DNA of 63,961 nucleotides, counting the filler, from Intoshia linei (taxonomy: Eukaryota; Animalia; Orthonectida): the NCBI GenBank assembly GCA_001642005.1. It is 6 parts of 6 records of this genome, joined end to end, with 100 filler letters (N's around TTAATTAATTAA, not from the genome) between each part and the next. Parts side by side here need not be neighbours in the genome. Positions count along the whole stretch, not along the records: positions 40,952 to 54,697 come from LWCA01000999.1; 5 more parts are not named here. One strand, 5' to 3'. The position numbers and the translations under genes were made by a program. This document shows positions 1 to 58,349 of the stretch, piece by piece (position 1 is the stretch's first letter; every line of letters begins with the position of its first letter). The notes below the pieces were generated by a model. It was not told where the DNA came from and ran no database searches. It saw only the letters and a list, made by a program, of their open reading frames with translations.

Positions 1-200
1 TTTAAAGTAAAAAGTAATGTGATATGACGGTTCCACCTGAAACAAATTTGGGAAGCACTCTTTTAAAGGATTGATAATAGTTAATAGTAGGATTTTTAAG
101 TTGGATTTTCAACGTGAATTTATTTTTTTGGTATAATAAAAGAGTACCCTCGGCAGAGCTAGGTGATGTTTGTACGTAATACAAAACTTCCAAGCTAGTA
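1..200. repeat. Dispersed repeat, inverted copy at ~57460-57666
   Basis: tttaaagtaaaaagtaatgtgatatgacggttccacctgaaacaaatttggga...gccctcg..agagctagg closely matches the reverse complement of ~57460-57666; non-coding. Confidence 0.8.
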
Positions 201-25285: not shown

Positions 25286-26620
25286 CAGTTCGACCCCCGT
25301 TTGGGACGAACCTCGGCAGCAGGTACCCCGCCTTTTGGAAACTTTTTAAATGTTGTATGAATTGTTTTCATAGTATTATTTAATATTTCCTATAAATAAG
25401 TGTCAAATAAACCTCGTTTTGGGGAACTTTATTTTTTTACAAAAATTTTAAATGAAAATGGCATTTTTATTTAATTTTCAACCATATTCAAAATGATGAA
25501 CGATAAATTAAAATATTACACAAAATTGGAAAAAGCTCAATTATTAAAAGATAAAAAGTTCTCCGAACGAAAACTGTGGCTTTTTGTAGAATAAGCCCAA
25601 ATAATCAAGTGATGAATGTCAATGTTGATGTAATACCGTCATCAAGCACCTATAATTATTTTGTTGAATTAGATAAATCCGTGTTTGAGACATCTTAAAG
25701 TTTAGGAAACAAGATGTCCCGGTTAATGGTACGAAATTAAAACATATTGCTTTAAATGTGGCTACACGATTGAATATTAACAATTTTGTTGCCTCAAATG
25801 GATAGTTGGATAGATTCAAATCCAGGCATGAATTATTATTTAAGTCAATTTATGCTGAAAGAAATCATGTGATAAGTCGAATTTAATTGATTTTTATGCA
25901 TTTTACGATGAGCACATACGTTAATATAAAACTGAGAATGTTTTATATTATGACGAAACCGCTTTATCTATTAAAAACCTTCCAAAGAAATCATTTGTTT
26001 AAAAAAACGATGAATGTAAAGTAACTAAATAAATGAAAAAAAAGTAACATTATTTTTATGTTGTAGTTTGGAGGGGAAAAGCTACAGTCATTGGTAATAG
26101 GAAAAAGTAAGAATCCTCGATGTATGAAAAATTTTTTTCCATCTGATTTTGGAGTTTTATATAATTCATTGGTAAATTTATGGATGACAAGCAATATTTT
26201 TTATGCATGGTTGATGGTTTTGAATTGTGAAATGAAGGATCAAAAGAGAAAATTGTACTTATTTTGGATAATGCTAGTTGCCATAAAGTTAGATTGTTTA
26301 AATACTAAGTTGCTTTTTTTACCAAAGAATGCAACAGCTTTAATTCAACCACTTGATATGGGTATCATAAAATCGTTTAAAAACCATTATTATAATGTAA
26401 TGAGAGAATTTTTCCTAACTATGAATTGTGAAGAATTATCAAATTACCTTTCTAATTTAAACATGAGGCAAGCTATTTTTATAATTTTTCAATTATGGGA
26501 AAAAATAACTGGAAACAATTAAAAATTGCTGGAAAAATATAAATAAACACCGCGAAAGGACCCATATAACAATTTGTAATATAAAAACTAATGAAATCGA
26601 ATTTTTTATAGAAGAAGGTA
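25286..26620 (+). mobile_element. Decayed Tigger/pogo transposon
   Basis: CAGT start; CENP-B HTH remnant FVASNG*LDRFKSRH; DDE remnants YDETAL, IGKSKNPRC, FLPKNATALIQPLDMGIIKSFK; stops and frameshifts. Confidence 0.85.
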
Positions 26621-32419: not shown

Positions 32420-33160
32420 TTGAAATTTAAAAATTGCGAAGGAATGAATTATATAGATTTTCACCCATATGTCTTTATTGGAAATGTGTAGACGTAAAAT
32501 GCACATTTTTTTTTGAAATTGTAGGATTAATATTTACATTTTCAATTTTTAATTTAATCGAAATATTTGAAAAATATTGGTAGATAATATATTAAAAATT
32601 ATTTTTCACCGGGAATGCGTAGATTTCTGGGGTTGAACTTTTGTATTTATATCAACTGGAATAAGCTCTACAGAAAAACCTTTTTTTTAATTTTCGGACC
32701 ATTAATTATTTGACATTTTTTGTTATAATAAAATATTTAGAAAAAAAATATATGAATACTAAAATGCTTTTTTGAGCGTGAATTCGTCACTTATTCGGAT
32801 TGAAATTTTTTGGGTGTGTTCATAGAATACAACTGTATTACCTGTAAATTTTTTGAAATTCTAGGGCTGTTTTCTAAAAAAAAGGAATGGGAATTTGGGG
32901 TTTTGGCCTGGAAGATATAATTTTTTTAAATTCTCCATCTCGTTTGATTTTCAAAAAGAGAGACAACTGGGGTTTTTGACTCGTAAGATGTGAAATTGGG
33001 AGGTTGAAATTTATATTAATATACCCGAAAAAAAACTGTAATTGAAATGTGATATTTAAAAAATTCGAAGAGTGGTAGTTATTTCAATAAAGTGGAACAC
33101 ACAGACAGACGGACACACACACAAACAAAAATCGCGTAGAATATTATATAAGTTACGATA
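32420..33160 (-). mobile_element. Dispersed Helitron-like non-autonomous repeat with gtctgtctgt microsatellite near its 5' end
   Basis: Inverted match to 225-520 and 1325-2000; its 3' part is repeated at ~58150-58225. Confidence 0.55.
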
Positions 33161-35553: not shown

Positions 35554-38500
35554 TTAATTTCTCTTTCTCCATCTGTGAATCAAAACATTGGCAAATCCTG
35601 CTCTAAATTGACTGTTGTAGAATCCATATAAGAATGGATTTAATGATGAATTTGCATATCCAAGCCATAAAAAGAATTCTTCAAGGTGGTAATTTATGTT
35701 GAACGAAACAAATGGGCGCATAGTAAACACAGTGAAATATGGTATCCAACAAATTAGAAATGCTATTACCACAGATCCTAATGTTATTCTAGAATATAAT
35801 CATTATAAATATCTACTGTAAATTATACGTGGCTTTGTGTTCATTCGATTGGCTCAATTTATTTTTTTTAAATATGTTTCTTAAAGATAAGGATAATATA
35901 TTTTTTTTTGATCGTTTTATTTGCAACGGTTTCAATTCAATGCTTTCCGCTTCCCTTGTTTTTGTGACATTGGTGATCATTTTTTCTAATTTTTTTATTT
36001 TTTTTGTCTAAATTTAAATTTTAAATTTATTATTTGCAATGGATAAAAGTATTTATTTATTGACTAGTTTAATAGTTTGTAATTTCAAATGACACAATGC
36101 CTTTTCTCAGATTACAGATTTCTTAAAAGACGGGTCTCAGTACCATAAGTTCAAATCTATTTTTTATAGATAATGCGATCCAACACTGAAAAATTCTCCG
36201 CCATAAATATGGGTTTAATATAAAATAGTAGTTCTCAAATTGGGCGATATTGCTTATTAATTAATGATAATTAACAATTATATCTAAATTTGTGAAAATA
36301 CTTTATATTCATATCAAATAATATCAAATAATATTAAATTAAAATGCTAGTTTTATCATACTAACATTCATTTTAAAAAGTCAATTTTGCAAAATGGATA
36401 CAAAACCATACAAAAAATATATTTTACTTCTAATTTCCAGCATAGAATTATAATTGATAATTATCACAACGAAAGAACTCGCCAATTTTACTACGTAATC
36501 AACGATAATAATCTGGATTATCTTATGACATAATAATCTTATCACGGCTGACTCAGCGGTGGTAACCATAAAAATTTTTTAACAATTAAAAAAACCATGG
36601 CCGCTCCAATTAAAAACGTATTATATATCAATTTTTACATTCACATTTTATTTTTTCATTTAAACTTGTATAATTTTAAATTACCTATGTGAAAATATAT
36701 GAAAATAAAAGAATAAATTTTTTCAAAATTATGCTGTGTATAGTATATAATACACAGACAGTGAATGCTGATTGGAGATAACTATATCAATTTGGAGTTT
36801 TCTTTATGAAGATATACCATTTTCATGATTTTAAAATTTGTATCAGAGTGTATAGTTTTTTAACTTATAAAAACTGTTTTATTTTCAAAAAAAATTATAA
36901 TTGGGGTTTTTGACCAGTAAGATGTAAGTTTCTGAGATTGAAAATTATCCAACCATCTCCCGGAAAAAACTGATTTGGAATTATTGTTTATTAAAATCAT
37001 AGCTATTGAAATAAACGATAACAGACAAACACAAATGATTTTTTTATAAGTTACGATATATTCTTGAAACAAACAATGACTGTTATATAGGCATAGAAAA
37101 TTGCAATAAAATAGATTCAATAATAATTTAAGATTAGATAGATTAATAGAATTAAATTTATAATATTTATATAATTTAATTTACCGTTATAAATTTAAAA
37201 AAAATTTTATCGATAAAAATATTGTTACCGATAATTTAGCGGTAAATGTTTATCAATTGCCTACCCTAATCTGTATGAATGAATTAAAGAAACATCGATT
37301 CTTTCTAAAAAATCTTTTGATTAGATCTTTAGATCTAAGAGAATTTTAATATTTTTCAATAAATTTTAAATCTTACCATTTCTCAATATGTAATATAATG
37401 AAAATTCAATAATCTCTTTAAATTAGATTATTTTCGATATACAATTACATTATTATAACATAAAATTATAGATTCAAAAATACGTATTAAGGAATATACA
37501 ACAAATTAATTAAATTGGTGCATTGTCCTTAAATTTAACAATTTTTAAATTATTTAAAAAAATTTGAATAAATTTATATTATTAATTCATTTAATAAAAA
37601 TTTCATAAAAATATTTTATAAATTATAATTTTAACTAACTTTATTTATAAAAAAATAGATGCAAACGTCTAGCAGTAATTCCTAAAATGGAAGACTTAGT
37701 AATTTAATAATTTATTTTTGTCTTTATAAAAAAATAAAAAAACATTGATATCAAAATAAATGACATTGACGTTGATCTTGAGGAATATAAACTGAGAGTA
37801 AAACCGGAAAAAACTGTAATTGAAATGTGGACTTTATAAAATTCTAAGACTGGTAGTTATTTCAATAAACGATAACACAAACAAATATTGCATAGTATAT
37901 TATAATATGCTATGATTATATAAGTACACACAAACAAATATTGCGTAGCATATTATAATATGCTAATTATATATAATGATAAGTATATAATTATATAAGT
38001 AAGGATTTGATACAAACTTTTCTTTAATACACTGAAACTAACCAGCATTAGAATAAAAATACAATGTTACTTGATTAATTTGATTTTATAATGAAAATTA
38101 TTTTGAAATAACAGTAAAAACAATATAAACAATAATGAATACAATTTTTTAATAATAATGTGGATTCAAGTGGAATACAATTTAAATTCGACACAAATAG
38201 TACATAAAATCACGCTTTACGTGTAATAATATTTTAATCAGATTAAGAAATAAAAAATTATCTCAAACTAAATATAAATAATTTAAAATAAGAAAGGTAC
38301 AAGAAATTAGATTAGCTAAATTAGATTAGATGGTCTAAAATGTAACAAGATGAATAAAAAATATAATTATAATCAAAATTATAATAATGTTTATCGAGTG
38401 TATTAAACAAACTATAATTAGACATAAATATATAAAGTGACACCTTCAAATTTATTTTATTATACTATTACACTTATGCTTTTTACTATTAAATGTAAAT

Positions 38501-40951: not shown

Positions 40952-41622
40952 AGAGAAGATGGACAAAGAATCATTGTAAGGTGTGCTAATAGAGTTAATT
41001 CTGTTGAATATATTAGGATTTTGAATAGGTATATCGATGAACTTCATAATACACGATATATTTTCCAGCATGATAGAGCACCAGGCCATAGATCATGAAT
41101 GACAAACAACTTTATCAAAAATAGATACCTAAATACGCTTGATAGTTGGCCCCCACAAAGTTCAGATCTCAATATAATTGAGCATGTATGGGGTATGTTT
41201 AAGATAAATGTTTCAAAAATTAAACCAAGAAATTTGGAACAACTTTGGACTGTTACAAGAGAAGAATTTTATAAAATACCCGATGAATATATCAAGAATT
41301 TATTCAAGTCTTTACCTAGAAAAATAAAATCTGTTATTGGTTCAAATGGTGGTAATACCAGATATTAACAATAATAAATTTCTTTTTTAATTTTTCTTCG
41401 AAAATGTTGCATTTGATTCAGAAGTGCCTAAAACTTTTGCACGGTCATATTTTAACAATTTCTTGTTTCCATCGTTTCTATGTACATTTTACATATTTTG
41501 TTAATCGACACATAATTATCTATGAATTTTAATCACTTGAACAAAATTTTAAGAAGATTCGACACATCGTTATATTAATATAGCCGTTTAAAGGGGGTTC
41601 CTAAAACGTTTGCACGGGTCTG
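40952..41622 (+). mobile_element. Tc1-family transposon 3' half with IR/DR-type right end
   Basis: FQHDRAPGH, WPPQSSDLNIIEHVW, SLPRKIKSVIGSNGGNTRY*; direct repeats cctaaaac.tttgcacgg at ~41427 and ~41600; ends ctg|TA. Confidence 0.9.
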
Positions 41623-41964
41623 TACCATCAAATATATCTTAATGATCCTAACTGTACCAATCACCTTAACTCTCACCATAAACCTCAAGAACTGCAATCT
41701 CTCTACCTTAAAATTAACAAAATTAATATCGCGATGTCAAAGTTCAAAATGAACGAACCATTCTTTAATCAAATAAGGTAATAATCAACCAATAATGTTC
41801 ATGGATCTTTTACCATGATTTTATTGTGACGATGTACAACAAGTATCAAATAAGCCCCTTGATAAATTGAACTCGAACCAAAATACTTCAAAAAAAAAAC
41901 TTTCTAACTTTCTTTTTCTTTTTTCTTTTTTTTTTTTTTCTAACTTGAACCTTTTAAACACTTG

Positions 41965-42145
41965 AGATGTCACACCTTTCATTTGAAATAAGGAAGATTA
42001 CAATTTATTTAACAAAGGATACCCGCAGACAAAAATCGCAAAGCTGTCAATATTGACATGTGCTGTTAACGAAAATATTAAGAAACATAAGCAAGATATT
42101 CCTCTCCAAGATAGAAAACGACTTGGCAAGAGCTTGAAAAAAGTA
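41965..42145 (+). mobile_element. Possible Tc1 N-terminal HTH remnant
   Basis: MSHLSFEIRK..GYPQTKIAKL..pattern with frameshifts. Confidence 0.4.
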
Positions 42146-42785
42146 ATATATGTAATAATACTTGTACAGTAGAATCTCTTTAATTTAAAGTCAATTTCAT
42201 TGAAATACTCTTCATTTTAAATATTCACATGTTCATTTTTATATGAATTTTATAATTGATTTTGAAAATATTTGAATTATTTTATTTACATTTTATATTA
42301 TTAATTAATTTTATTATTACGAAATTTTTTCATTTAAAATTTAGTGTCTCATAGAATGAATATTACTTATGATTTATTTAGTTAATCTTATATCTTATAT
42401 TAATTATCTTAGCTAATATTATAGAGAATTAAATCGTATCGTTGTTCGATATTCGATATATAATGATTTAGCTGCTGTTAAAAGTTATTTGGAATAAATT
42501 TACATTTATTTATTTTTATTAGTCATAAAAACGTCAAATTAAAAATTGTAAATAATCATTGAAGCAAACTTTATAAAACAGAATTATATGACAACTACTT
42601 GCTCATACTTAATATGAGGCTGTCATATTTGATACAGCACTGTCTATATTTGATACGAAAGTGAAATTTCAATATGATCAATTTATCTAGATATAACCAA
42701 GAAATATTCAATACATCGTTATAACTAAACTATAGTCTAAACTAAGTCGTATAAACTTTATTCTATACACAGTTACTACTTAATA

Positions 42786-43296
42786 TTGCTCACACACGCT
42801 ACAATGAATTTGAATAGAGCTTTGAATTTGGCGCAGGATTGGGAAGATGAAGTTGATCTAATTAATGAAACGGAATTAAATACAGTGGATAAGGTAGTGT
42901 CGAGTCCGATTTTTGATACGATGGACGTAAATGATAGTTTTTTAAGTTTAACCAACTTTACACGGCTGGAAATATTAACTTTATATCACCGATTTATCTC
43001 TGTCTATAACTCACACCGTAAATTTCATGTAAAAATTAATTTTTAATTTGTTCTAGCACTCGATTCATTATTGATGTATATGTTTTGAATTAAGACTAAA
43101 CACGTATCCAATTTTATGTAAAGTATTCTAACTAAAAACAACCGACACAGTCAAAAAACTCCTCGACCGTGTGAGATACCCTCTTTTGGAAAGTTTAAAA
43201 ATATAGTGGTGGAGCGACAGAAAATGGCCAGTGACAATAGAGGGTAGGTGGCCTCATGTCGATTTATTGGGAGACAACACAGATCGTTGAGTGGTT
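42786..43296 (+). mobile_element. Decayed Harbinger/PIF-like (DDE_Tnp_4) transposase N-terminal part
   Basis: LTNFTRLEILTLY, ALDSLLMY, LLDRVRYPL, LLGDNT (first catalytic Asp region). Confidence 0.5.
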
Positions 43297-43325
43297 CAAC
43301 ACAGATCGTTGAGTGGTTCAACACA
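43275..43325 (+). repeat. 22-bp tandem duplication, 2.3 copies
   Basis: caacacagatcgttgagtggtt x2 + caacaca. Confidence 0.9.
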
Positions 43326-43871
43326 CAAAGAAAGAAAAACCTTACAATTAATGCTATAGTTCCTGATTATGCATAACATGCAAAAGCAATGAACGAATAT
43401 TCTTTATAAATAAAACGCAACCCGAAACCAGATTTGACGCTTGAAGCCATGGAATCTTATAGGCGTTGCAGACAATAGTGTATCATGATAAAGACATCAA
43501 TGCTATATATTGCTCACAGTTTAAAGAGTTAAAAAGAAGGTGTTATATAGTTTGAAACAACATGTATTGTTATTTTGTGATTTATCACCAGATGGTTTTG
43601 GACGGAAAATTGATGTATTTGTTTGCAGGTGACGATTCAGTTTTGTCGAATTACTTGGAACACGTTGAACTCGATGTCTAAGTATGATAAGTCACAAGGG
43701 CTTTTGGCGATACACTATGATAGAATGATTATGAAATCTTTCGGGATACAAAAATATTATCGTGATTTGTGGTTTAATGGACATTTTTTAACAAAAATAT
43801 ACGATCCAACTACTAAGATAAAAGCATTAATACCTTTCCAACGTAAGTCTGGTGATGCTTCTACTTTTATT
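43326..43871 (+). pseudogene. Endogenous viral element: nege/virga-like (Martellivirales) RdRp fragment
   Basis: Across frameshifts: NEYSL*IKRNPKPDL, ALQTIVYHDKDINAI, ELD/SKYDKSQG (motif A), LWFNGH, KALIPFQRKSGDASTF (motif B). Confidence 0.9.
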
Positions 43872-45800
43872 TATTACTCTCAGTGAATTTCTACGTGGAT
43901 CAATCCCTATAATGGGTGGTACCCCTAAAAAATTCGACCCAAAGTTTCGTATATTCATTCGTCAAATCATTGACCTTCGTGCGCATCAATCCATTTTAAC
44001 CGACCTTTCTTCAAAATTACTCAAAGCCATCAACAAAATTCGAATTTAATGTTCTGGATTACAACAACGTGACATCAACGAAAGAGAAACCTCCCGATTC
44101 AAAACAATTCAAAGTATTTCGATATATCCAACTTTTGCGGCAGCATTAATTCGGGAATAAGAAATATGTTAAATCGTATTGTAGGATCAATGACTAGTGT
44201 AAACAAAGCTTTTCTTTGGTTATCCAAAATTTTGCGTATGGGCTTACTACAAGTCGTTTCACCCACTGTTCCAAACACTATTATCTCTAACTTTCCAAAT
44301 TCAATACCATTCACTATAGGAGCATTAAGTGTTCAACAGGGCATAAACCAAGCAGTCTGGTCTCTCCTTACCGTTGGTTTATCTTCACTTTGGTTAACAT
44401 GGTCTTATATGAGATGAAAGATATCGGAACCAGAATTGGTTTAGAACTTTCACTCAAAGAGTCCGTGTTCTCTATACTTAAAATTTTTTCGAATAATGAT
44501 GACAGTCCACTACAATTGATGGATTCCAACTCACAATGATGACAAAAGGTTTGGCACTCAACTTCCAAGATACTTTGGACACTCAGTATCTTTTTAGTTC
44601 TGCAATTAATGGAATATTGGAAAGAACCGCTAAGAGTAGTGCTTTTGAAACGGGACCACATCAAACGTAGTTCATGAATTGCTTACTGATCATTTATTAT
44701 TATATATTTGACATTCGTTTTTCTACTTCTTGGCATAGCCCTATACCTATTGAAAATTTATTGACCAATCATTTGGAAAATGTTGGAAAGAAATGAAGGA
44801 AGTGGAATCTGAACTTAGGAATACAACAGTGACGACCTGGAATATGAGTCTGAACTAGAGTGTGATGACATTGTTAAATTTTCAGATACCCTGCACTATT
44901 AGTGGTATTGGTTCGAAATGGACAATTGGTTCAACATGGAACTTGAACGCGCATATTTACACTACAAAACTGAAGGTACCCGAATCAAGAAAATAGAGTT
45001 TAATCAACAGTTTCTCAACATAAATAATATTACTGACACTAAATATAGAATTCTCAGTAGTCCTATTCTTTTCACGACTGTTTTCCAATTTCACAACGAT
45101 CATATAACCTCTACAAACCGTAATGTTCCTGGTTTTGGGGACAAAATTATCTACACATAAAATTTCATCAAATATGCTTAAACTCCAAATTCCGGGGGTT
45201 GGAAAAACCGTTTGTAGAGACCATATCTTTACTGACACTTTTGCTGTATGGGACGAGTCATTTAACGCCGCAAATGATAATTATTGCTATAATTTGCTGT
45301 CTCAGCATTTTGACACTTATGCTCACCAGAGTGTTTTTTAAGTGCTGACTTTCTCCAGATGGAGATACAAAATGGAGATGAGAGTGCATTCCCACTCAAT
45401 ATAGCTGATTGTCACTCAAAAGGTACTACTTTCTTCATGTCAGAATTTTTAGTTTGTACAAGTAATGTAGACCCTACAGAAAATAGCACTTCGTTTGGTT
45501 CAGTAATGGTCGACCCAATTGCTTTTTCGAGAAAACTCGATATTTGTGCAAATGTTGCACGTATAGGTTCCTCTAATCCCGTTTTTGACAATAATTCCAT
45601 TTTTTTTTTTACTATAAGAGTAGGAAAATGTCTAACTAAATTAACAGTACGCTTACAATTTTAAAATTCATTATCATAACTGAGAGAATTGAAAAAAGAG
45701 AATGCCATCACATTTGGTTCGTTATTCATAAACTATAAATTTGACAACCCGGAAATCGACACGTTAATAATAGACGAAACCTTTTATCTAAGAAATTAAA
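43872..45800 (+). pseudogene. Endogenous viral element: picorna-like nonstructural polyprotein with 2C/SF3 helicase (upstream limit uncertain)
   Basis: PGVGKT (Walker A), HFDTYAHQSV../ADFLQ (B), AFPLNIADCHSKGTTFFMSEFLVCTSN (C), DPIAFSRKLD; frameshifted. Confidence 0.8.
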
Positions 45801-45829
45801 ATCTGATTAAATAAAAGATGACAATTATA

Positions 45830-46330
45830 AAAAATGGACTATTATACTTAAAGATCAATATAAAAAACGAGTATTTTTTAGTTTATAAAATTAGGGAACT
45901 AAATTTTCCAATTAAATGGTTACACTGACCATTTTTAGCAAATTATACTCAGTCCTCTTTTTGCTATACCGAAAGAAAAATATACTTGTATCATCATCAG
46001 GAATCCCGATGCATGAATTTATTTAAGATCTAATAGATTTTTTTGAAGCTTATAATGATACAATGCCATCTGTATCAGCCACGAGAAACATCAAATATTT
46101 AAAAAATGTTTAGGTCACAAGAATAAAATGGATCGTTAAAAGAAAAAATATATTTATGGTAGTTGATGAGTCCCAAAGAAACAAATTTGGCTACTTAAAT
46201 ATCATGATTAGTTTATTTCGGATAGGGTATATGCTTTTAAATGTATACCTTCGCAGAATTCAGTTAATGCAAATTTTATGTGCACAGCCATCAATAATGT
46301 AATTCGAGAGTTATCAATAGAACGAAAAAA
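45830..46330 (+). mobile_element. Decayed hAT-related transposase fragment
   Basis: SSGIP..MPSVS, IFMVVDESQ..YLNIMI, SVNANFMCTAINNVIRELSIERKNF. Confidence 0.4.
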
Positions 46331-47089
46331 TTTCAGTTTTTTTTCAGTAATTGGGATTGCACCTGTGGTCAATGATAGGCAAAAAGATCTCTTGCAAAAT
46401 TTAAGAGATGTTTAAATGTCACTAAAATTGAAGAAGCATTGCAAAACCTAGTATGCACCATGAACAATATTAATTGAAATGAACTCATTTGGATTTTTTA
46501 TTATCTATGTATCATAGAAAAAATAAATTATATTATATTTGTATCTTTATAATTTAGATTCACTGTGATTCTACGCATTATTACATAACCAAGGACCATA
46601 TGAGCTTTTATCCAAAATATTTGTCAAAGTAAACGTTTTTTATATGCGATTCGACACACAATTTTAAACTGAGTTTGTATACTACAATATATTCTTCTAT
46701 AAATTGGTATAACGACTCTTTTTTACATACAATTTATTAAAATAATTTTTTCCTTTAAGATTTACGATAAATGTAAACGGTTGGCCCACAGCATTTAGTC
46801 GCCTCAGTTTTCGTAATAGTTCAATTTTTATTATAATATATAATAGGGAATAGTTTGTTTAAATAAGATAAAATTACGAGAAAAATATTATAATAACCAA
46901 ACACTTAAAATATGTAAATTAAAATTATATTGGGCAACCCCTCACAATAATTTAGTTAACAATATAATATTCAAATTTCCCTTTAAAATGTGGTATGAAA
47001 TTACTCATATAAATGGTCATATCTGCTAAATTATATGCAATTCATATTATGAATACATTGAATAAAATCATTACATTAATTTAAATATG

Positions 47090-47617
47090 AAGAGTTTTGG
47101 CGAGTTCGTGCCTGCAATGATCTCGACCCTAAAAACTCCGTAGAAGATCATCAGATGCTTTTAGACCAGATTGCATGGCACGAACGGTGAAATTTCCAAC
47201 TAAAATTATGGTTCAAGGAGCAATTAGTGTATCTGGGCCCGGCTCTATATTTGTTATAGAGGGTATAATAAACAAACATAAATATATTGACACATTAAAA
47301 AACTTTTTAAATGATCGTCCAAGTTTTCTAAAATATGCATGTTTTCCACCCGATTTGGTTCCATGTCATACATATTATAATATATAATATTCTGCACGGT
47401 CAGTTAAATATTTTTTTGATTCCAACCAATGGAAAGTATTACCCTGGCCCAATAATTCAGTAGATATGAATCCCATTGAAAACGTTTGAAAGGTATTGAA
47501 AGATGAAGTACATCATGTTCATATTTCGTCAAAACAAGAATTAATTGACCCGACAATATGGGTTTGAAATAATTTGGACAAAATTCAATTATTATGCAAA
47601 AACTTAATAATTGGAAT
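47090..47617 (+). mobile_element. Tc1-family transposase DDE remnant
   Basis: RTVKFPTKIMVQGAIS..GPG, DLVPCH, VLPWPNNSVDMNPIENV*. Confidence 0.85.
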
Positions 47618-48590
47618 TTACTGCTAATTAGAATTTTGAATAAAACAAGAGTAAGATCACACTAATCTATAGATCTAACAATGGGACTATTTGATAAAGA
47701 CCAAGTTGGTGGAAACAGAGATTTGCATATTGTCATCTGAATTTAGGAAATAACAGTATGTTGAAGAATGTTTCTTTACCTCATTGGCTGAGTGTACAGA
47801 CAATGAAATGTTTAAAAGAAAGATAAATATGATTTTCTCATTAAAAGATGGAAGAAGAACTAATATGATATGAGAATATTTTAATTTCAACGGATCACAC
47901 TAGGTGGGGCCAAACATGAATACAATAATGTTTTCTTATTTGGCAGCTTATTGTACCAGACACACCACAGAAGCCTATCTTCCAATAATCATCTGTTGCT
48001 TATTACAATACAAAGTGTTTGAAGTTCCCCCTTGGCTAAATGACTTATACGTAAGATGTAATGCTGCATATACATTACTTATATGCAGATCGCACATGGG
48101 TCAGGAGATATTTCATGGAAGTTTGTCTGTGATGCATGCTTTTTCGAAGACGTCAATACAATATATAAGAGCAGCCGCAGCAAAACTGGAAATAGATCAA
48201 TCTATAGCTCGTCATGTGATACATACAAGTTCTAGTCTAGTGACTAGTAATAATGTGGCTATAATAGAAAGTTTCACAGTGGCAACTCCGGATTATATAT
48301 CTATGGTAACGACAGCTGGTGTATTAAAGTGTAAGAAAGTACACCTTCTGACTATTGACACCATGCAAGAGATTAAGAGCAAAGTAATGATTATCTATAA
48401 GAACTTTAGTGAGATAATCCATTATTTTGGAATAAAAACAACATAAACACAAAATGTCTACTCATAGTATTGAATTTAATTCAAAATATATCTCAAATGA
48501 TTCTATTGGCAGTTTTAACGATTGGCAGATAAAAACTCAGATAAGTTTATCTTTAATAAAAAGATTTATTGATTTGCTGATATCTGGTTC
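47618..48590 (+). pseudogene. Endogenous viral element: bunyaviral (arena/nairo-like) L polymerase core
   Basis: LFDKDQVGGNR (premotif A), STDHTRWG/PNM (A), KVFEVP, HMGQEIFH (B), VTSNN (C), FGIK (D), IEFNSKY (E), all in the correct order. Confidence 0.88.
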
Positions 48591-48732
48591 TAGGGTAGTG
48601 ATATCATCGGATTTTTTACTTTGTTAGACACAATTAGTGTTGGCGTTAGTGTTAGTATCGATAAATTTTTGAATATTTTTAATATCTATTATTTTTTTAT
48701 TTTATTTTTAACTTTATTTTATTATCGCCAAA

Positions 48733-48920
48733 ATGACAAATAAAAGATCTAAAGTATGGAATTATTTTACATTAGTAAATAGTAATGAAGCTAAATGCAC
48801 AAAATGCTATACAATTGTAAAATGTTCAGGAACTACCAGTGTTATCACGTTAAAAATGTCCACAATATTAATTTGAAAGAAGATATAAACCAAACAAAAT
48901 TGCGAAGGATAGATTTTCTT
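48733..48920 (+). mobile_element. BED zinc-finger remnant of a hAT transposase
   Basis: KRSKVWNYF..AKCTKC..SGTTS. Confidence 0.7.
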
Positions 48921-48924
48921 GTTA

Positions 48925-49522
48925 CAGTGCACCCCTGATAACGAACCCTCTTGTTAACGAACTTTAGTAATTAGCGACTTATTAATCAATCATTATAGAT
49001 AAATGCGATAATAAAGCTATATAAGTATTAAATATACACAAAACTTTATTTTTGCACGTGACTGTTTTGATTTATAATTAATTTAATTATTTTTTCAATA
49101 ACGAACAACGAATAGATTATATTAATTTTTTTAATTTTTATTTAACTTTCCCCTTAGATAATGAACATATAAAAAAAATAATAATGGCAAGAAAAGGATT
49201 CGACTAACCTACTACTAAAAGAAAAATGAACTCATTTCATTTGCAGAGAATAATCAAAATTACAAACAAAGAGATTTAGCTGAAAACTATCAAATATCTC
49301 TTGGAACAGTTAATACCATTTTAAAAAGCTCTTCCGTTATCAAAAACTTTCGTCATGAAATCAGGAAAATGAGAAAAAAAAGAAAGTCCATTGTAGATTT
49401 TTTGTCTAGGAAGCAATAAATTAATTTTAAATATTATTTGTTACATATTTTGTTCGTTATCTTTCAATAACGAAGTTGGAAAAAAATAATGACTAAATGT
49501 TCGTTATCAGAGGTGTGCACTG
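48925..49522 (+). mobile_element. Tigger-derived MITE
   Basis: TA|CAGTGCACCCCTGATAACGAAC and GTTCGTTATCAGAGGTGTGCACTG|TA TIRs; HTH remnant KQRDLAENYQISLGTVNTILK. Confidence 0.85.
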
Positions 49523-49914
49523 TATTATTCTACTTTATAAACAAAAATCTATTACTAATCCATTTTCATTATGGCAATAAGGTTTTGAATGTACAGTCTA
49601 ACTCGTCAATAATGAATACCGTAAATAATGAACGAGTTTTGGTCAAAATTCATCCCTTCTATAGAAAATTTCTTCATTCATTACTTATCGTGATTTTTTA
49701 ATTATGAATCTGAAATATCTGAATATTCACTAAATGTAATGTTAACAGTTTTGAAATATGTCACGTAATTATTTTTTATTAGATATGGATTGTCAGTCTT
49801 TTTGGTTTATAAAAAAGACTAACAAGCCAAAATAAAAAGTAAGTTGTATCTACAAAAATGTTAGTGAAAATGAAAATAATCATTGAAATTTCTTAGTTAG
49901 TTAGGAAAATTTTC

Positions 49915-50630
49915 AAAAGAAAGAATAACGTTATTGTTTTGCGTGTCAATGACCGGTGAAAAATATGATATTCTTTTGATTGGTATTGCAAAAAACCCCA
50001 GAAAATTTAATTAAATAAATTTCAACAAATTAAATTTAGATTATAAAAATAATACCAAAGCCTGGATGTCCACAATTATTTTTGAGCAGTGGTTACATAA
50101 ATTTAATTTAAAAATGAAAGACAAAAATAGAAAAATACTTCTGACACTTGACAATGCCCCTGTACACCCTAAGCACTGTAAATATTCAAACATTAAGATT
50201 TATTTTTTCCCACCAAATGTAACATCTAGAATGCAACCTCTCGACCAAGATATAATAGGTGCTTTTAAAAGTCATATAAAAAATTATTGAATACAAAAAT
50301 CTTAATTCGATCAATTAATAATGAAACTTCTTTTTTAAAGTGTCTCAAAGAAATTAAACTTTATGACGCCATTTTACTTATCATTGAAGCGTGGAAATCC
50401 ATATCACCAAAAGAAATATCTAATTGTTATATAAAAAAAGATAGAATTATCAATGCTGGATTATGATGCACTATTTAATATTAATGAGCCTTCAATTGAC
50501 ATCGATTATATTCCATATGATATTGAATCAAACAATATTTCTGATATCATAAGTCCAGAAGAATCACTTGTAAATATAAATGAAAACATTTCTTTGCCAA
50601 ATAATAATAATATTAGAATAATTTTTTTCT
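49915..50630 (+). mobile_element. Tigger/pogo DDE_1 remnant
   Basis: KAWMSTIIFEQWL, ILLTLDNAPVH, FFPPNVTSRMQPLDQ. Confidence 0.85.
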
Positions 50631-50639
50631 ACACCCCGA

Positions 50640-51820
50640 CTTTTAAAATTGTTGAACAATTCTCATTTCCTTCAAACTGACGCAACGTACAAGCTGATTT
50701 ATCAGGGGTACCCAGTCTTAATGATAGGTAGAAGTAATATAAATCGAAAGTTTCACCCTGGCACTATTGCGGTCACAACAAATGAAAAATCGGATGATTT
50801 TAAATTTTTATTCCAATCATTGATTAAGGGAGTTGGTAACAATAATAATTTAATGGATCCAAAGGTTTTAGTAGCGGATAGTTCTTCAGCAATTACAAAA
50901 GCATTTGAAGAAGTTTTCATTATGGAAAAAAAAATATATTGTTTTTTCATTATTATAAAAACTATCACGAAACATACTAGCCTTTGCGCTATACCTAAAT
51001 GTGACAGAATGGAACTTCGTCGAGATATAAATTTTCTTCAAATTTCTTCGTCGGTTGATATCTACAACGTCGCGAAGAATTTATTTCTGACAAAGTGGAA
51101 TCAGTACACTCAATTTTGTCAGTATTTTATTAAACAATGGATTTGCAAAAGCTGGTATGAGGGCGCAGTTTTACATATTCCATCAATAAACAATTCTCTA
51201 GTGGCCACTAATGGTGTAATTAAACGACAAATGACCCTTAGGGAGCACATTCCACTGAATCAATTTTTTAGTGTAATATGTAAGGACATTTTATCGATTT
51301 GGTCTCTAGATAGGAAACGTAATTATTTATTTGTTTAAACATAATATAGCACATTTAATCAATATATTCATTTTTTAGAATATCTCCAATATTCAAGTAA
51401 TTCCAAATTAGAAACTAAAGAATAGACTAATGCTTATTGATGGCCAAAAGAAAATCAACTCATCCGCAAAAAAACATTAACCAATGATGTGACTAAATGT
51501 TATATAATTTCTGTGATGAAAAATGTTGATTTGGATTACGAAATTAACACATATCAAGCTAAATCCTGGAAAAATTTCAATCATTTCAAGGAAAGCATAT
51601 CATTGGTTATTGTGGTAATTATAAATAAATTAAAATGGGAAAAAGCCACATGTACTTGTTCAACTTATCTGAAATGTTATACCTGCAAACACAGTTTGGG
51701 TATGGCAATTAGATTGAAGTATGATTGATGTGTCGTTCCTATTGAAGCTAAACTCTTACCTTTACGTCAAAAAAGAAAAAGAGGACGACCCAGTCTTGCC
51801 AAAAGAGCATTATATTATCA
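50640..51820 (+). mobile_element. Mutator/MULE transposase remnant with SWIM finger
   Basis: LQTDATYKL..GYPVL.IG, LVADSSSAI, CFF, NNSLVATN, CTCSTYLKCYTCKH. Confidence 0.85.
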
Positions 51821-52855
51821 ATGGTTATTATTATGTTAATATTGAGACATTGTATAATACAGCCATACAAACTCAAATCCTCGGCGGGCTGCATTATTTG
51901 TCAAAATTTTCAGGCGGCCGCATCTTAATTTTTTTACAGATTAAGGGTAGGTTTTTAGAGATTTTTTAAACGACGTTTAAAGGGAGGTTATTATGGAATT
52001 TTTATTTAACCTAAGTTTAAGGAAATTTTGTGAAAGATAACGTTTTTGAGTAAAATTCGCCACTGATTGTATATAATATATACAAAGTCGTGCGAGCCGC
52101 ACATAAATTTGAAACTGAAACGTGCGGGCCGCAAGTTTGACATGCCTGGTATAATATATACTATATTACAGTATACTTACGTACGGTATATGAATTTATT
52201 ATATTATATTTGTTTAGAATCATTACTTACAGACAATAATTACATGATAATATTAATTGTATAATACATTTTTACTTATTACGAAAAAATGTTTAAAAAC
52301 GAAAAAAAAAAACACTGATTTAAATGCATTCGAATAAGGATTGTTAAAAAATTAGAATGTGTTAATGTTAGAATTAATGTAATAGTTGATACATCTCCAA
52401 ATAAACTACTTAAATAAAATTAATTGTTAAAATTTAATAATTAATTGACGTTATAAAGTATTGTTATATTTCTTTAAATAAGTGCTAGTTATTTATCATG
52501 TGACATTTCCACTATTCAGATGCTAATTTAAGTGCTAAGAAGAATTTAAGAACTCTATTTAAGTGCTAAATGTTGGACTTTAAATGACGCGTTAAATCAT
52601 AGCCTTTAAATAATAAATTCTTTGAATTCAATCTTTTATGTTATGTTAAAAATTTTGCCAATTTCTGCCAAAAAAGGTCATGCAGTTCTATAACTTTGAT
52701 AGAGAAGCAATTTAAATTGAATTGTGGAAAAAAATTTACATAAAATCAAAAATATGGCTATAAGAGAAATTGAGTTAGCTCACAAAATCTCATAAAAGCC
52801 ATTACATACAATACCTATCTAGCATCAATTTAAAATAAAATATAAAAAAACATAC

Positions 52856-52961
52856 TTCCATAGATGGAGTAAAACAATAAGTTAATTCATAATCTTCACA
52901 GTATACAGGTAAATGAGCTACAGAGTCCATTGGAAATGAATCACCGGCAATGATTACAATT
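52856..52961 (-). CDS. NHP2: Isolated exon of NHP2-like L7Ae protein
   Basis: ag|IVIIAGDSFPMDSVAHLPVYCEDYELTYCFTPSME|gt; flanking NHP2 exons not found nearby. Confidence 0.65.
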
Positions 52962-54171
52962 CTAAATTATAATTAATTCATGCTTTCGTTTTAAAAGTCA
53001 GTTGTAAATATATCTATAAAAAGTTTACACAAATTATCATCTTTGAGTTAGTTGCAATGAATTTTAAAAAAATCACAGCTAATAGTAACTGGAAATTTAA
53101 CCTACACAAAAAAATTAATTTCACAAAGTGACGCTGTTAAATCTCAAAGATTGTATAAAATCTTATATTTTAACAGAAAATATATTTTTAAGATAATGAG
53201 TTAAGTTAAGTAGATAATTCTAAGTAGTAAGTAGTAAGTGAGATAAGTAGATAGATAGATTAAGGTAAGATAAGTCTGTTGAGAAAAAGAAATGTAAATA
53301 GAGTAAGTAAGTCAAAAAATCGTTTTTTTTATTTGGTAACTATTTTATAAAAACAAAAATTATTTATTAAATTATTTTTTCGGGTTATAACTACAGTAAA
53401 ACCTCCGTTATTTTCCCGGTTAATTTATATTTAAATAATATTATGATAGTAAAATTCTGTAATTCGGCCAAAATTTTTCATAGTACATTTTTATTTTTTA
53501 AACCACGTAATATAACAGCCAACTAATATTAATGTTATATTTAATATTAATCGTATATCCTGTATTGTTACGTTAATTAAGTAACTAAAATAACCTATTT
53601 TGATTATAATTATTGGATGAAACTTTTGAAACCATAGTTAAGTTGACAATTACAAATTTTCACTGTTGATAACTGTCACTTCTTTGGCAACTAAGATGTA
53701 CTGTTTAAAAATTATCTTTATTATGATAACAAAATGTTATACAGTGAGACAATAGATATTAACATTTTAATCATACATTTTTGCAAACCAAAACAAAATT
53801 TGTTTTAAAATATGCATTTTATAATCTATGGGGGTATGAGGGGGGAACAGAACATATTTCTAATTGAAAATTAGAATTGAAGTTAAAAAAATAGCAGATA
53901 CATTTTATTTAAAAAAAGCTCCAAAATTTGATAATTTATAAAGAAAAAAATCAACAAATCAAAGAGCAGACCTAATTGAAAATAGAGTTTAACGAAATTG
54001 TGTCAAAACTAAATCAAAAATGTATTTAATAGGACAGTAAACTGTACATTTTTAGAGGAAGACTATGTGATATAAATATATAAAATGACCACAGATTTTA
54101 TTATAGATGCAGTGAAACTTTTTTAAAATATACAAAGAATGCAATACAATAATAATGGTCCACAATAAAAT

Positions 54172-57119: not shown

Positions 57120-58349
57120 CTATTTAAATAGTAATACATTATTTTTAATTAGTATATACTAACAAATTGTAAGTTGTATATTAAATATTGAAAAAGCAAA
57201 AATTTTTATGGAAAATGAAATTTTCTCTATTTATAATACAAAAACGTCAATCAAAGTAAATTAATGCAATCATTAATTTATTTCATCGAGAATAAAAATA
57301 ACAATTTGAGATATTGTAAACGAGATTTTTAAAATTACTGTAAAAGATGTAAATTGAATTTAACGTAAAGGATTTATTTTTACGAGACGGATAAAATGCC
57401 AATGTCATTATCATATTTGCAGTAAAAAGTTTCCTAATTCACGTTGGAGATTTTATCGTATATGTAAACTAGGTTGACTGTTATGTACTACGTACAAACA
57501 GGACCTAGCTCTGGCGAGGGCACATTTTTATTATACCAAAAAAATGAATTCATGTTGAAAATCTAACTTAAAAATCCTACTTTCACTGTTATCAATCCTT
57601 TAAAAGAGTGGTTCCCAAATTTGTTTCAGGTGGAACCATCATATCACATTACTTTTTACTTTAAAGTGAATTATTCCACTTAATTTTTTGTTTGTTATTA
57701 TTTGCGAAAAGAATTTTAAAAACAATTGTTAGCCCAATTTTTTAATTTATTAGATAGAATGTGTGTATAATATTAAAAATAAAGTAAAAACACTCCAACC
57801 CTAAAAATTGTCATAAATAGCATAAATTCCAAAAAAAATAAAATTATAAAAACCTATTTTGTCATTTTCAATATGATAATATATATTCAATNTAAAATTA
57901 TAAAAACCTATTTTGTCATTTTCAATATGATAATATATATTCAATATTAATTTAATAAATATTTAAAAATACCAATTATGTATCAATAATTAACCGAATC
58001 TTCACTTTATAAACATATTTTAAACGAATTTACCAAATATTACAAAGGATTGTAATAAATATAAAAATGATACTAACAAAGTTGTATGACTTTTAGTTTT
58101 GTTGTTGTAGTTTCTATTTAAATTTTATTAAAAATGTTTTGAAAATGATAATTTAAAATTTAAAAATTGCGAAGAAATGAATTATATAGATTTTCACCCA
58201 TATTTTTGTATTAGAAATGTGTATTATTAGTATTTAACTTAAACTTCAATCTGCATAATTTCTAATATATATCTAAATAAACATATAATTGGTGAAACAG
58301 CTGTATTTACGTTAATATTAAATATATTTTATATATTGGAATTTTTGAA

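Follow-up and report, generated by a model that had tools for sequence, protein, structure and literature searches.

The DNA of the orthonectid Intoshia linei carries a broken, 580-base piece of a nege-like polymerase (RdRp) that lies among DNA-transposon remnants, has a permuted palm with its motifs in the order C-A-B, and likely comes from a virus of the centivirus group; we put the probability of this reading at roughly 0.8. The piece was analyzed within a window of 63,961 nucleotides, filler included, in which 6 parts of 6 records of assembly GCA_001642005.1 are joined end to end, and all positions given here count along this window. The stretch is present in 2 of 4 public runs (X1 and X2, from 2 studies), with next to none of it in X3 and X4. 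X1 is of a kind guessed to be DNA and may be the source sample, and the kind of X2 is not on record.

Extent and decay of the polymerase fragment

The fragment occupies 43296-43874 on the plus strand and comprises fingers and palm, including motifs C and A and the start of motif B, as recognized by Pfam RdRP_2, by tblastn, and by a profile of permuted RdRps. When 43200-43880 was scanned frame by frame, one frame matched RdRP_2 (PF00978) with an E value of 2.5e-19 and 69.9 bits against a cut-off of 27, and a second frame matched the same family at 2.9e-6. This is the check that a sequence-only reading of the stretch had proposed, and the match is not chance. Short pieces were required: when the six frames were scanned against Pfam in stretches of 4,000 residues, none of the three viral fragments described in this work came up. 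The permuted-RdRp profile, made from 18 permuted RdRps and used on each frame separately, is covered from position 124 to 323 of 485 across 43296-43874, with the frames in the order 3, 2, 1, 2, 3. The four frame changes lie near 43461, 43535, 43620, and 43675, and two in-frame stops lie near 43374 and 43407.

The sequence-only reading had bounded an endogenised fragment at 43326 and 43871. Its right bound is near the edge of homology found here (~43874, within motif B), while the profile places the left edge slightly further left, at ~43296, and one tblastn match with 27% identity extends back to 43173. The motifs quoted in that reading are all in place, spread across several plus-strand frames: IKRNPKPDL at 43410-43436, ALQTIVYHDKDINAI at 43463-43507, ELD at 43667-43675, SKYDKSQG at 43677-43700, LWFNGH at 43767-43784, and KIKALIPFQRKSGDASTF at 43815-43868.

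Within the RdRp piece X1 has two substitutions and no indel, and X2, which holds 43636-43909, has 0 differences. X1 shares the stops and frame changes with the window and X2 agrees with it over its shorter stretch, so these are not assembly slips. The degraded, partial reading frame is as expected of a non-retroviral endogenous viral element (EVE), and the piece likely makes no working protein. The fragment has also lost 4 of 50 conserved columns, which alone is weak evidence of decay because live-virus rows lose columns too (at least 2 in 11 of 31 rows, at least 4 in 5 of 31). Solved-structure searches with the RdRp piece gave no useful match, and its edges showed neither terminal repeats nor a target-site duplication. 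Short tblastx matches between negevirus genomes and other parts of the window were rejected as sum-statistics noise.

A permuted C-A-B palm

All three palm motifs are present in the fragment: motif A is split by a frame change, motif B is cut at the fragment's end, and motif C (GDDS, 43628-43639, plus strand) lies ahead of motif A. The GDD is 15 codons upstream of the aspartate of motif A; the chance of a GDD at one given place is ~3e-5. The sequence-only reading held that the fragment breaks off before the GDD, and homology does stop early, inside motif B, but the GDD is present and upstream because the palm is permuted.

Motif order was read in 165 relatives, made up of 45 from one search and 120 listed of 164 from another. 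Among these listed relatives the GDD comes after motif B in 129, before motif A in 27, and could not be parsed in 9, and the offset of 15 is kept in 22 of the 27 permuted ones. The C-A-B order is stated for centiviruses and sandewaviruses in passages of PMC8045340 and PMC11596407, where nelorpiviruses, Kitaviridae, and Virgaviridae are given the canonical A-B-C order. With its GDD standing before motif A, the fragment departs from this canonical order of nelorpiviruses, Kitaviridae, and Virgaviridae (tobamo), and it is not of tobamo/virga type. There is no named sandewavirus among the 165 proteins listed or in the tree rows. In a tree of 157 rows, permuted RdRps (P0011, P0013, P0117, P0132, P0160, P0184, P0187, and P0201) are scattered among canonical ones, and this suggests several separate permutation events or reversals within this virus group.

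Phylogenetic placement

Phylogenetic analysis with 42 rows placed the fragment in a starred clade with centiviruses (support 99/91), which persists, still starred, when the second Intoshia protein is left out (99/97, 28 rows). The clade includes aphid and centipede centiviruses, and the fragment stands in it beside a second Intoshia RdRp ORF. The fragment fills 129 (36%) of the tree columns, and an AU test retained the alternative of a nelorpivirus grouping (p 0.22). Since the trees omitted the motif C region, motif order is a character independent of them.

Raw similarity ranks the relatives otherwise. The highest raw identity is to Ying Kou virus (61%), which is of nelorpivirus type, and the best 12 summed tblastn scores among the 165 relatives listed all belong to canonical proteins of nelorpivirus type. 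Hubei negev-like virus 1 is the best named protein match, yet it falls outside the starred clade. A metagenome scan returned 16 relatives, the closest at 61%; motif order could be read in 13 of them, and each is canonical. Every named close relative of the fragment derives from arthropod samples. Nege-like viruses are known from flatworms (PMC10269781), and the two flatworm nege-like proteins that we retrieved have the canonical order and lie outside the fragment's clade. As judged from motif order and trees, the fragment likely originated from a centivirus-group virus. The relatives also include P0032 (LOC124303475 of Neodiprion virginianus), a gene model of an insect that carries RdRP_2, sits on a chromosome of 40 Mb, and is likely another virga-like EVE.

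A second Intoshia RdRp

A3Q56_05216 (OAF67055.1, P0009) is a 359 aa protein with RdRP_2, annotated as one ORF on another Intoshia linei contig (18,950 nt). It is sister to the fragment in three trees (99/86, 91, and 91/74), the pairing being starred in one (99/86) and unstarred in the tree with better sampling (91/74). The protein shows changes in motifs A and B and has an odd letter make-up. Between the two Intoshia copies, 11 of 50 conserved columns differ versus 42 of 79 variable ones (p 0.0005), which is the pattern of divergence between viruses, so two insertions fit better than one duplicated fossil. We infer that the copies may represent two insertions from related viruses, with A3Q56_05216 likely the fragment's sister by way of a separate insertion, and the sister copies point to repeated exposure to one virus lineage.

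One sentence of PMC6396948, a study that required a near-complete domain, attributes a viral-family RdRP to Intoshia linei and gives horizontal transfer as its probable source. The 7 text supplements of that paper mention neither Intoshia nor the accessions; A3Q56_05216 is probably the protein behind the remark.

Neighbouring viral fragments

A bunya-like L polymerase fragment in three frames lies at 47612-48513 on the plus strand and is matched by 47 proteins at E values up to 0.001, the best at 5.2e-32 with 39% identity. Two of the 10 L relatives looked up are named (Drosophila Sunshine bunyavirus and Bunyavirales sp.), and 4 of 12 scanned L relatives have a Bunya_RdRp match, 2 of them above the cut-off. 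The fragment belongs with an unclassified group having short L proteins, most relatives being 1,700-1,900 aa long.

Between this fragment and the RdRp piece, at 45192-45544 on the plus strand, two adjacent frames match PF00910 in complementary parts, at E 0.031 (profile positions 7-66) and E 0.013 (68-105), neither reaching the cut-off. A helicase profile of our own, built from 20 polyprotein segments, picks up the two parts in the right order: the E value is 3e-10 for the part used in selecting the segments, which is circular, while the Walker A part gives 0.045. Two of the 43 selected helicase loci were checked and both are picorna-like. A related-locus search with the helicase piece returned 0 loci, and the ESM Atlas gave no usable match for 45317-45661 or 44073-44414. 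These matches make 45192-45544 a likely picorna-like superfamily 3 (2C-type) helicase fragment. Solved-structure searches with the L piece, its relative P0214, and the helicase frames found no useful match; matches to a lipase and to capsid VP3 were treated as chance.

Two firm viral fragments and one likely one lie within a 5.2 kb block, and the same viral profiles found no further fragment across the rest of the window. Between the RdRp and helicase pieces, the G+C content of 43875-45190 is raised to 35-38% (versus 26% for the window), and both strands carry several open frames, each of 60-115 codons. None of these matched a Pfam family or any of 643 ORFs from 174 loci, and the stretch is possibly more viral sequence. 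The idea that the minus-strand frame near 44084-44332 encodes a capsid found no support.

The block likely varies between haplotypes, since X1 differs from the window in having 29 extra bases near 43018 and in a 345-base skip of 45156-45500, into which the helicase core falls. In addition, one 198-base X1 contig skips 1,664 bases (47291-48954), with 69 bases on the short side of the joint; this joint is surrounded by repeats and may derive from a different locus.

Transposon remnants and a possible source of small RNAs

The viral fragments are interspersed with DNA-transposon remnants, all on the plus strand: DDE_3 (Tc1-like) transposase at 41015-41245 and again at 47210-47545, a BED zinc finger at 48748-48840 that is likely such a remnant, HTH plus DDE_1 (pogo/Tigger-like) transposase at 49246-50305, and MULE transposase plus SWIM finger at 50670-51716. 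DNA-transposon families were the only ones recognized, with no LTR or LINE remnants found across 40952-53000 of the contig. Beyond them, at 52830-52975 on the minus strand, a host exon of the L7Ae family (Ribosomal_L7Ae, E 7.3e-6), presumably of NHP2, points into the block. A plus-strand patch of ~30% G+C at 46000-46460 has broken frames and no Pfam match and is possibly another transposase remnant. Inverted dispersed repeats of 200-500 bases elsewhere in the window (1-199 with 57468-57665, 1509-1998 with 32440-32938, and 214-428 with 36856-37061) are likely non-autonomous transposons.

All 8 elements recognized between 40952 and 52800, of which five are DNA-transposon remnants and three are viral, are on the plus strand and 0 on the minus strand. 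A tentative reading of this pattern is that the block serves as a small-RNA source, in which read-through from the minus-strand host gene at 52.8 kb would yield transcripts antisense to all eight pieces. The uniform orientation favors it, as does the presence within 5.2 kb of pieces of two, likely three, unrelated RNA viruses, when the same profiles find none elsewhere in the window, and the layout matches that described in 10.1101/2022.08.22.504762 for mosquito core piRNA clusters. Against this, the orientation was noticed after the fact, making the sign test (p 0.008) post hoc, the pieces may be non-independent insertions, and the helicase, 1 of the 8, is weak. There is also no real orientation control, because the one further transposase remnant detected in the window (at 26067) likewise lies on the plus strand. 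The block has no LTR retrotransposons, unlike the Aedes loci of 10.1101/127498, and the skipping in X1 of the helicase core and, in one contig, of the whole L piece suggests weak constraint. This reading is compatible with a centivirus-group EVE as the best explanation of the fragment, to which it adds a function.

A bolder form of it, which we hold to be more doubtful again, is that Intoshia, among the most reduced of animals, has a mosquito-style virus trap: a one-strand block that would be read in antisense from an adjacent housekeeping gene, holding pieces of three unrelated RNA virus groups (centivirus-, picorna-, and bunya-like) and variable between haplotypes, together with a marine, non-arthropod branch of the 'insect-specific' centiviruses that would have infected orthonectids repeatedly.

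Origin of the insertion and the infected host

The origin that we favor for the fragment is a centivirus-group virus whose RNA would have been reverse-transcribed by a host retroelement. The cDNA copy would then have been inserted in the germ line, a route known from other invertebrates and adopted here from insect work, of which no local retroelement trace was seen. The inserted copy would afterward have gathered the stops, frame changes, and indels that are observed, presumably decaying free of selection in a block tolerant of insertions.

Orthonectids grow inside host tissue. On a rival reading the virus would have infected the host worm or a co-resident, with the intracellular Intoshia plasmodium taking up its RNA or cDNA, so that the fragment would be a true insertion without recording an infection of Intoshia. 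The arthropod samples behind all of the named close relatives lend this some support, and we nevertheless regard it as rather unlikely, for two copies diverged in the manner of viruses, alongside further virus groups, are more easily explained by infection of the organism that bears the germ line. We infer that Intoshia itself, rather than the worm it inhabits, was the infected host.

Presence of the fragment in the genome

A single X1 contig of 3,154 bases covers 42532-45155 and 45501-46023 at a depth of 14.7, within the range of neighbouring single X1 contigs (8.6-16.4), and crosses both fragment edges into AT-rich flanks. X2 runs 35 bases past the right edge and also holds four more pieces lying within 42.7-46.5 kb, at depths of 2-7. 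A 22-nt tandem duplication at the left edge (43275-43325, plus strand) is absent from the X1 contig. No X1 or X2 contig spans from the RdRp fragment to the host gene; the assembly contig at 40952-54697 (LWCA01000999.1, 13,746 bases) carries the fragment plus the host exon. A 21-base joint from 43872 to 48899 was dropped as chance, having vanished at 95% likeness.

The window carries ordinary animal genes (NDK, protein kinase, 7tm receptor) at 26% G+C. The RdRp stretch has 33%, and this difference, along with library types that are not on record, is what could be said for contamination or a mis-assembled live virus genome, a reading made very improbable by stops and frame changes common to the window and X1, by the X1 contig over both edges and X2 over the right one, and by the finding of only the RdRp piece when negevirus methyltransferase, helicase, and SP24 parts were looked for in the window. 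Since the X1 contig joins the fragment to AT-rich flanks, the fragment is in all likelihood a genuine endogenous viral element. The part of the sequence-only reading that called it an endogenised nege-like RdRp fragment is in this way borne out by Pfam, by the nearest proteins and the trees, and by public-run contigs that join it to non-viral flanks.

The best protein match of the fragment is this locus's own automatic gene model, A3Q56_06057 of Intoshia linei (OAF66221.1; 42804-44417, plus strand), which maps here in three pieces (~42804-42927, 43629-43847, and 44188-44414) with 77-95% tblastn identity, the shortfall being due to splice joints. Only the middle piece is viral RdRp, read without motif C and without the motif A aspartate, and the other two are unrelated to it. 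The first exon uses an 80-codon plus-strand frame (42804-43043) that matched no Pfam family and none of the 643 ORFs from 174 loci, and which we take by eye to resemble a transposase N-terminus. That the RdRp piece serves as a host gene, working or domesticated, is scarcely credible despite the 189-residue model in NCBI and UniRef, since the model stitches three unrelated pieces together, skips the stops and frame changes, leaves out both motif C and the catalytic motif A aspartate, and forms a cluster of 1 member. We treat A3Q56_06057 as a gene-prediction artefact over a viral fossil.

Significance

A literature search found no paper on endogenous viral elements in Intoshia, among the papers listed a single relevant passing sentence on viruses of Orthonectida (in PMC6396948), and no paper on non-retroviral endogenous viral elements with piRNA clusters in Lophotrochozoa. 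A virome preprint covering 31 phyla (10.1101/2023.11.03.565523) includes Orthonectida, and its main text, in the portion consulted, names no nege-like virus; negeviruses are described as insect-only in a passage of PMC11596407. The Intoshia proteome had been noted earlier to include a viral RdRp, and the present work contributes a decayed EVE, its corrected motif order, its neighbourhood, and an unexpected host.

A relative with a permuted palm, fossilised twice in an orthonectid, likely extends the host range to a marine lophotrochozoan parasite, and the fragment and A3Q56_05216 can serve as probes for finding a live virus. The bunya-like and likely picorna-like neighbours enlarge the fossil virome of a barely studied phylum. 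If it is true that the block yields piRNAs, EVE-trapping clusters would not be mosquito-only and would outlast extreme genome reduction. In practical terms, the database protein A3Q56_06057 is a prediction artefact built on a fossil.

Comparison with known systems

Mosquito core piRNA clusters that trap nrEVEs, as described in 10.1101/2022.08.22.504762 and 10.1101/127498, resemble the Intoshia block in combining unrelated viral fragments with transposons in one orientation and, according to the former, in lying downstream of an opposite-strand host gene. The Intoshia block differs in being ~11 kb long rather than >50 kb and in having no LTR retrotransposon. The nege/virga-like EVEs of arthropods (Kondo et al. 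2019 and Lu et al. 2024, as cited in PMC7154061 and PMC11978097) are the same kind of fossil as the fragment, which is set apart by its orthonectid host and its DNA-transposon flanks.

The nelorpiviruses (Piura, Loreto, Big Cypress, Ying Kou, and others) share the highest raw identity and the top tblastn scores with the fragment but are unlike it in that all are canonical A-B-C, with the GDD 92 residues downstream of motif A. A3Q56_05216 is longer than the fragment, lies on another contig, and has lost 15 of 92 conserved columns, while the two are alike in coming from the same genome, in the permuted order, and in 65% identity over the A-B block.

The proposed genus 'Centivirus', a group defined in PMC7154061 whose motif order is given in PMC8045340, has as members Wuhan house centipede virus 1, Wuhan insect virus 8, Hubei virga-like virus 4, barley aphid RNA virus 1, as well as Indomegoura nege-like virus 1. 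The layout of such genomes is methyltransferase-helicase-RdRp, glycoprotein, and SP24, of which the window yielded the RdRp piece and no other negevirus gene. The fragment is unlike these viruses in being a dead piece on a long branch, accompanied by no other viral gene and found in a marine lophotrochozoan, whereas the named centiviruses come from arthropod samples. It falls with them in the starred clade, a placement tempered by the AU result (p 0.22), and is like them in its permuted palm, in the same GDD offset, and in 55-64% identity over the motif A-B block.
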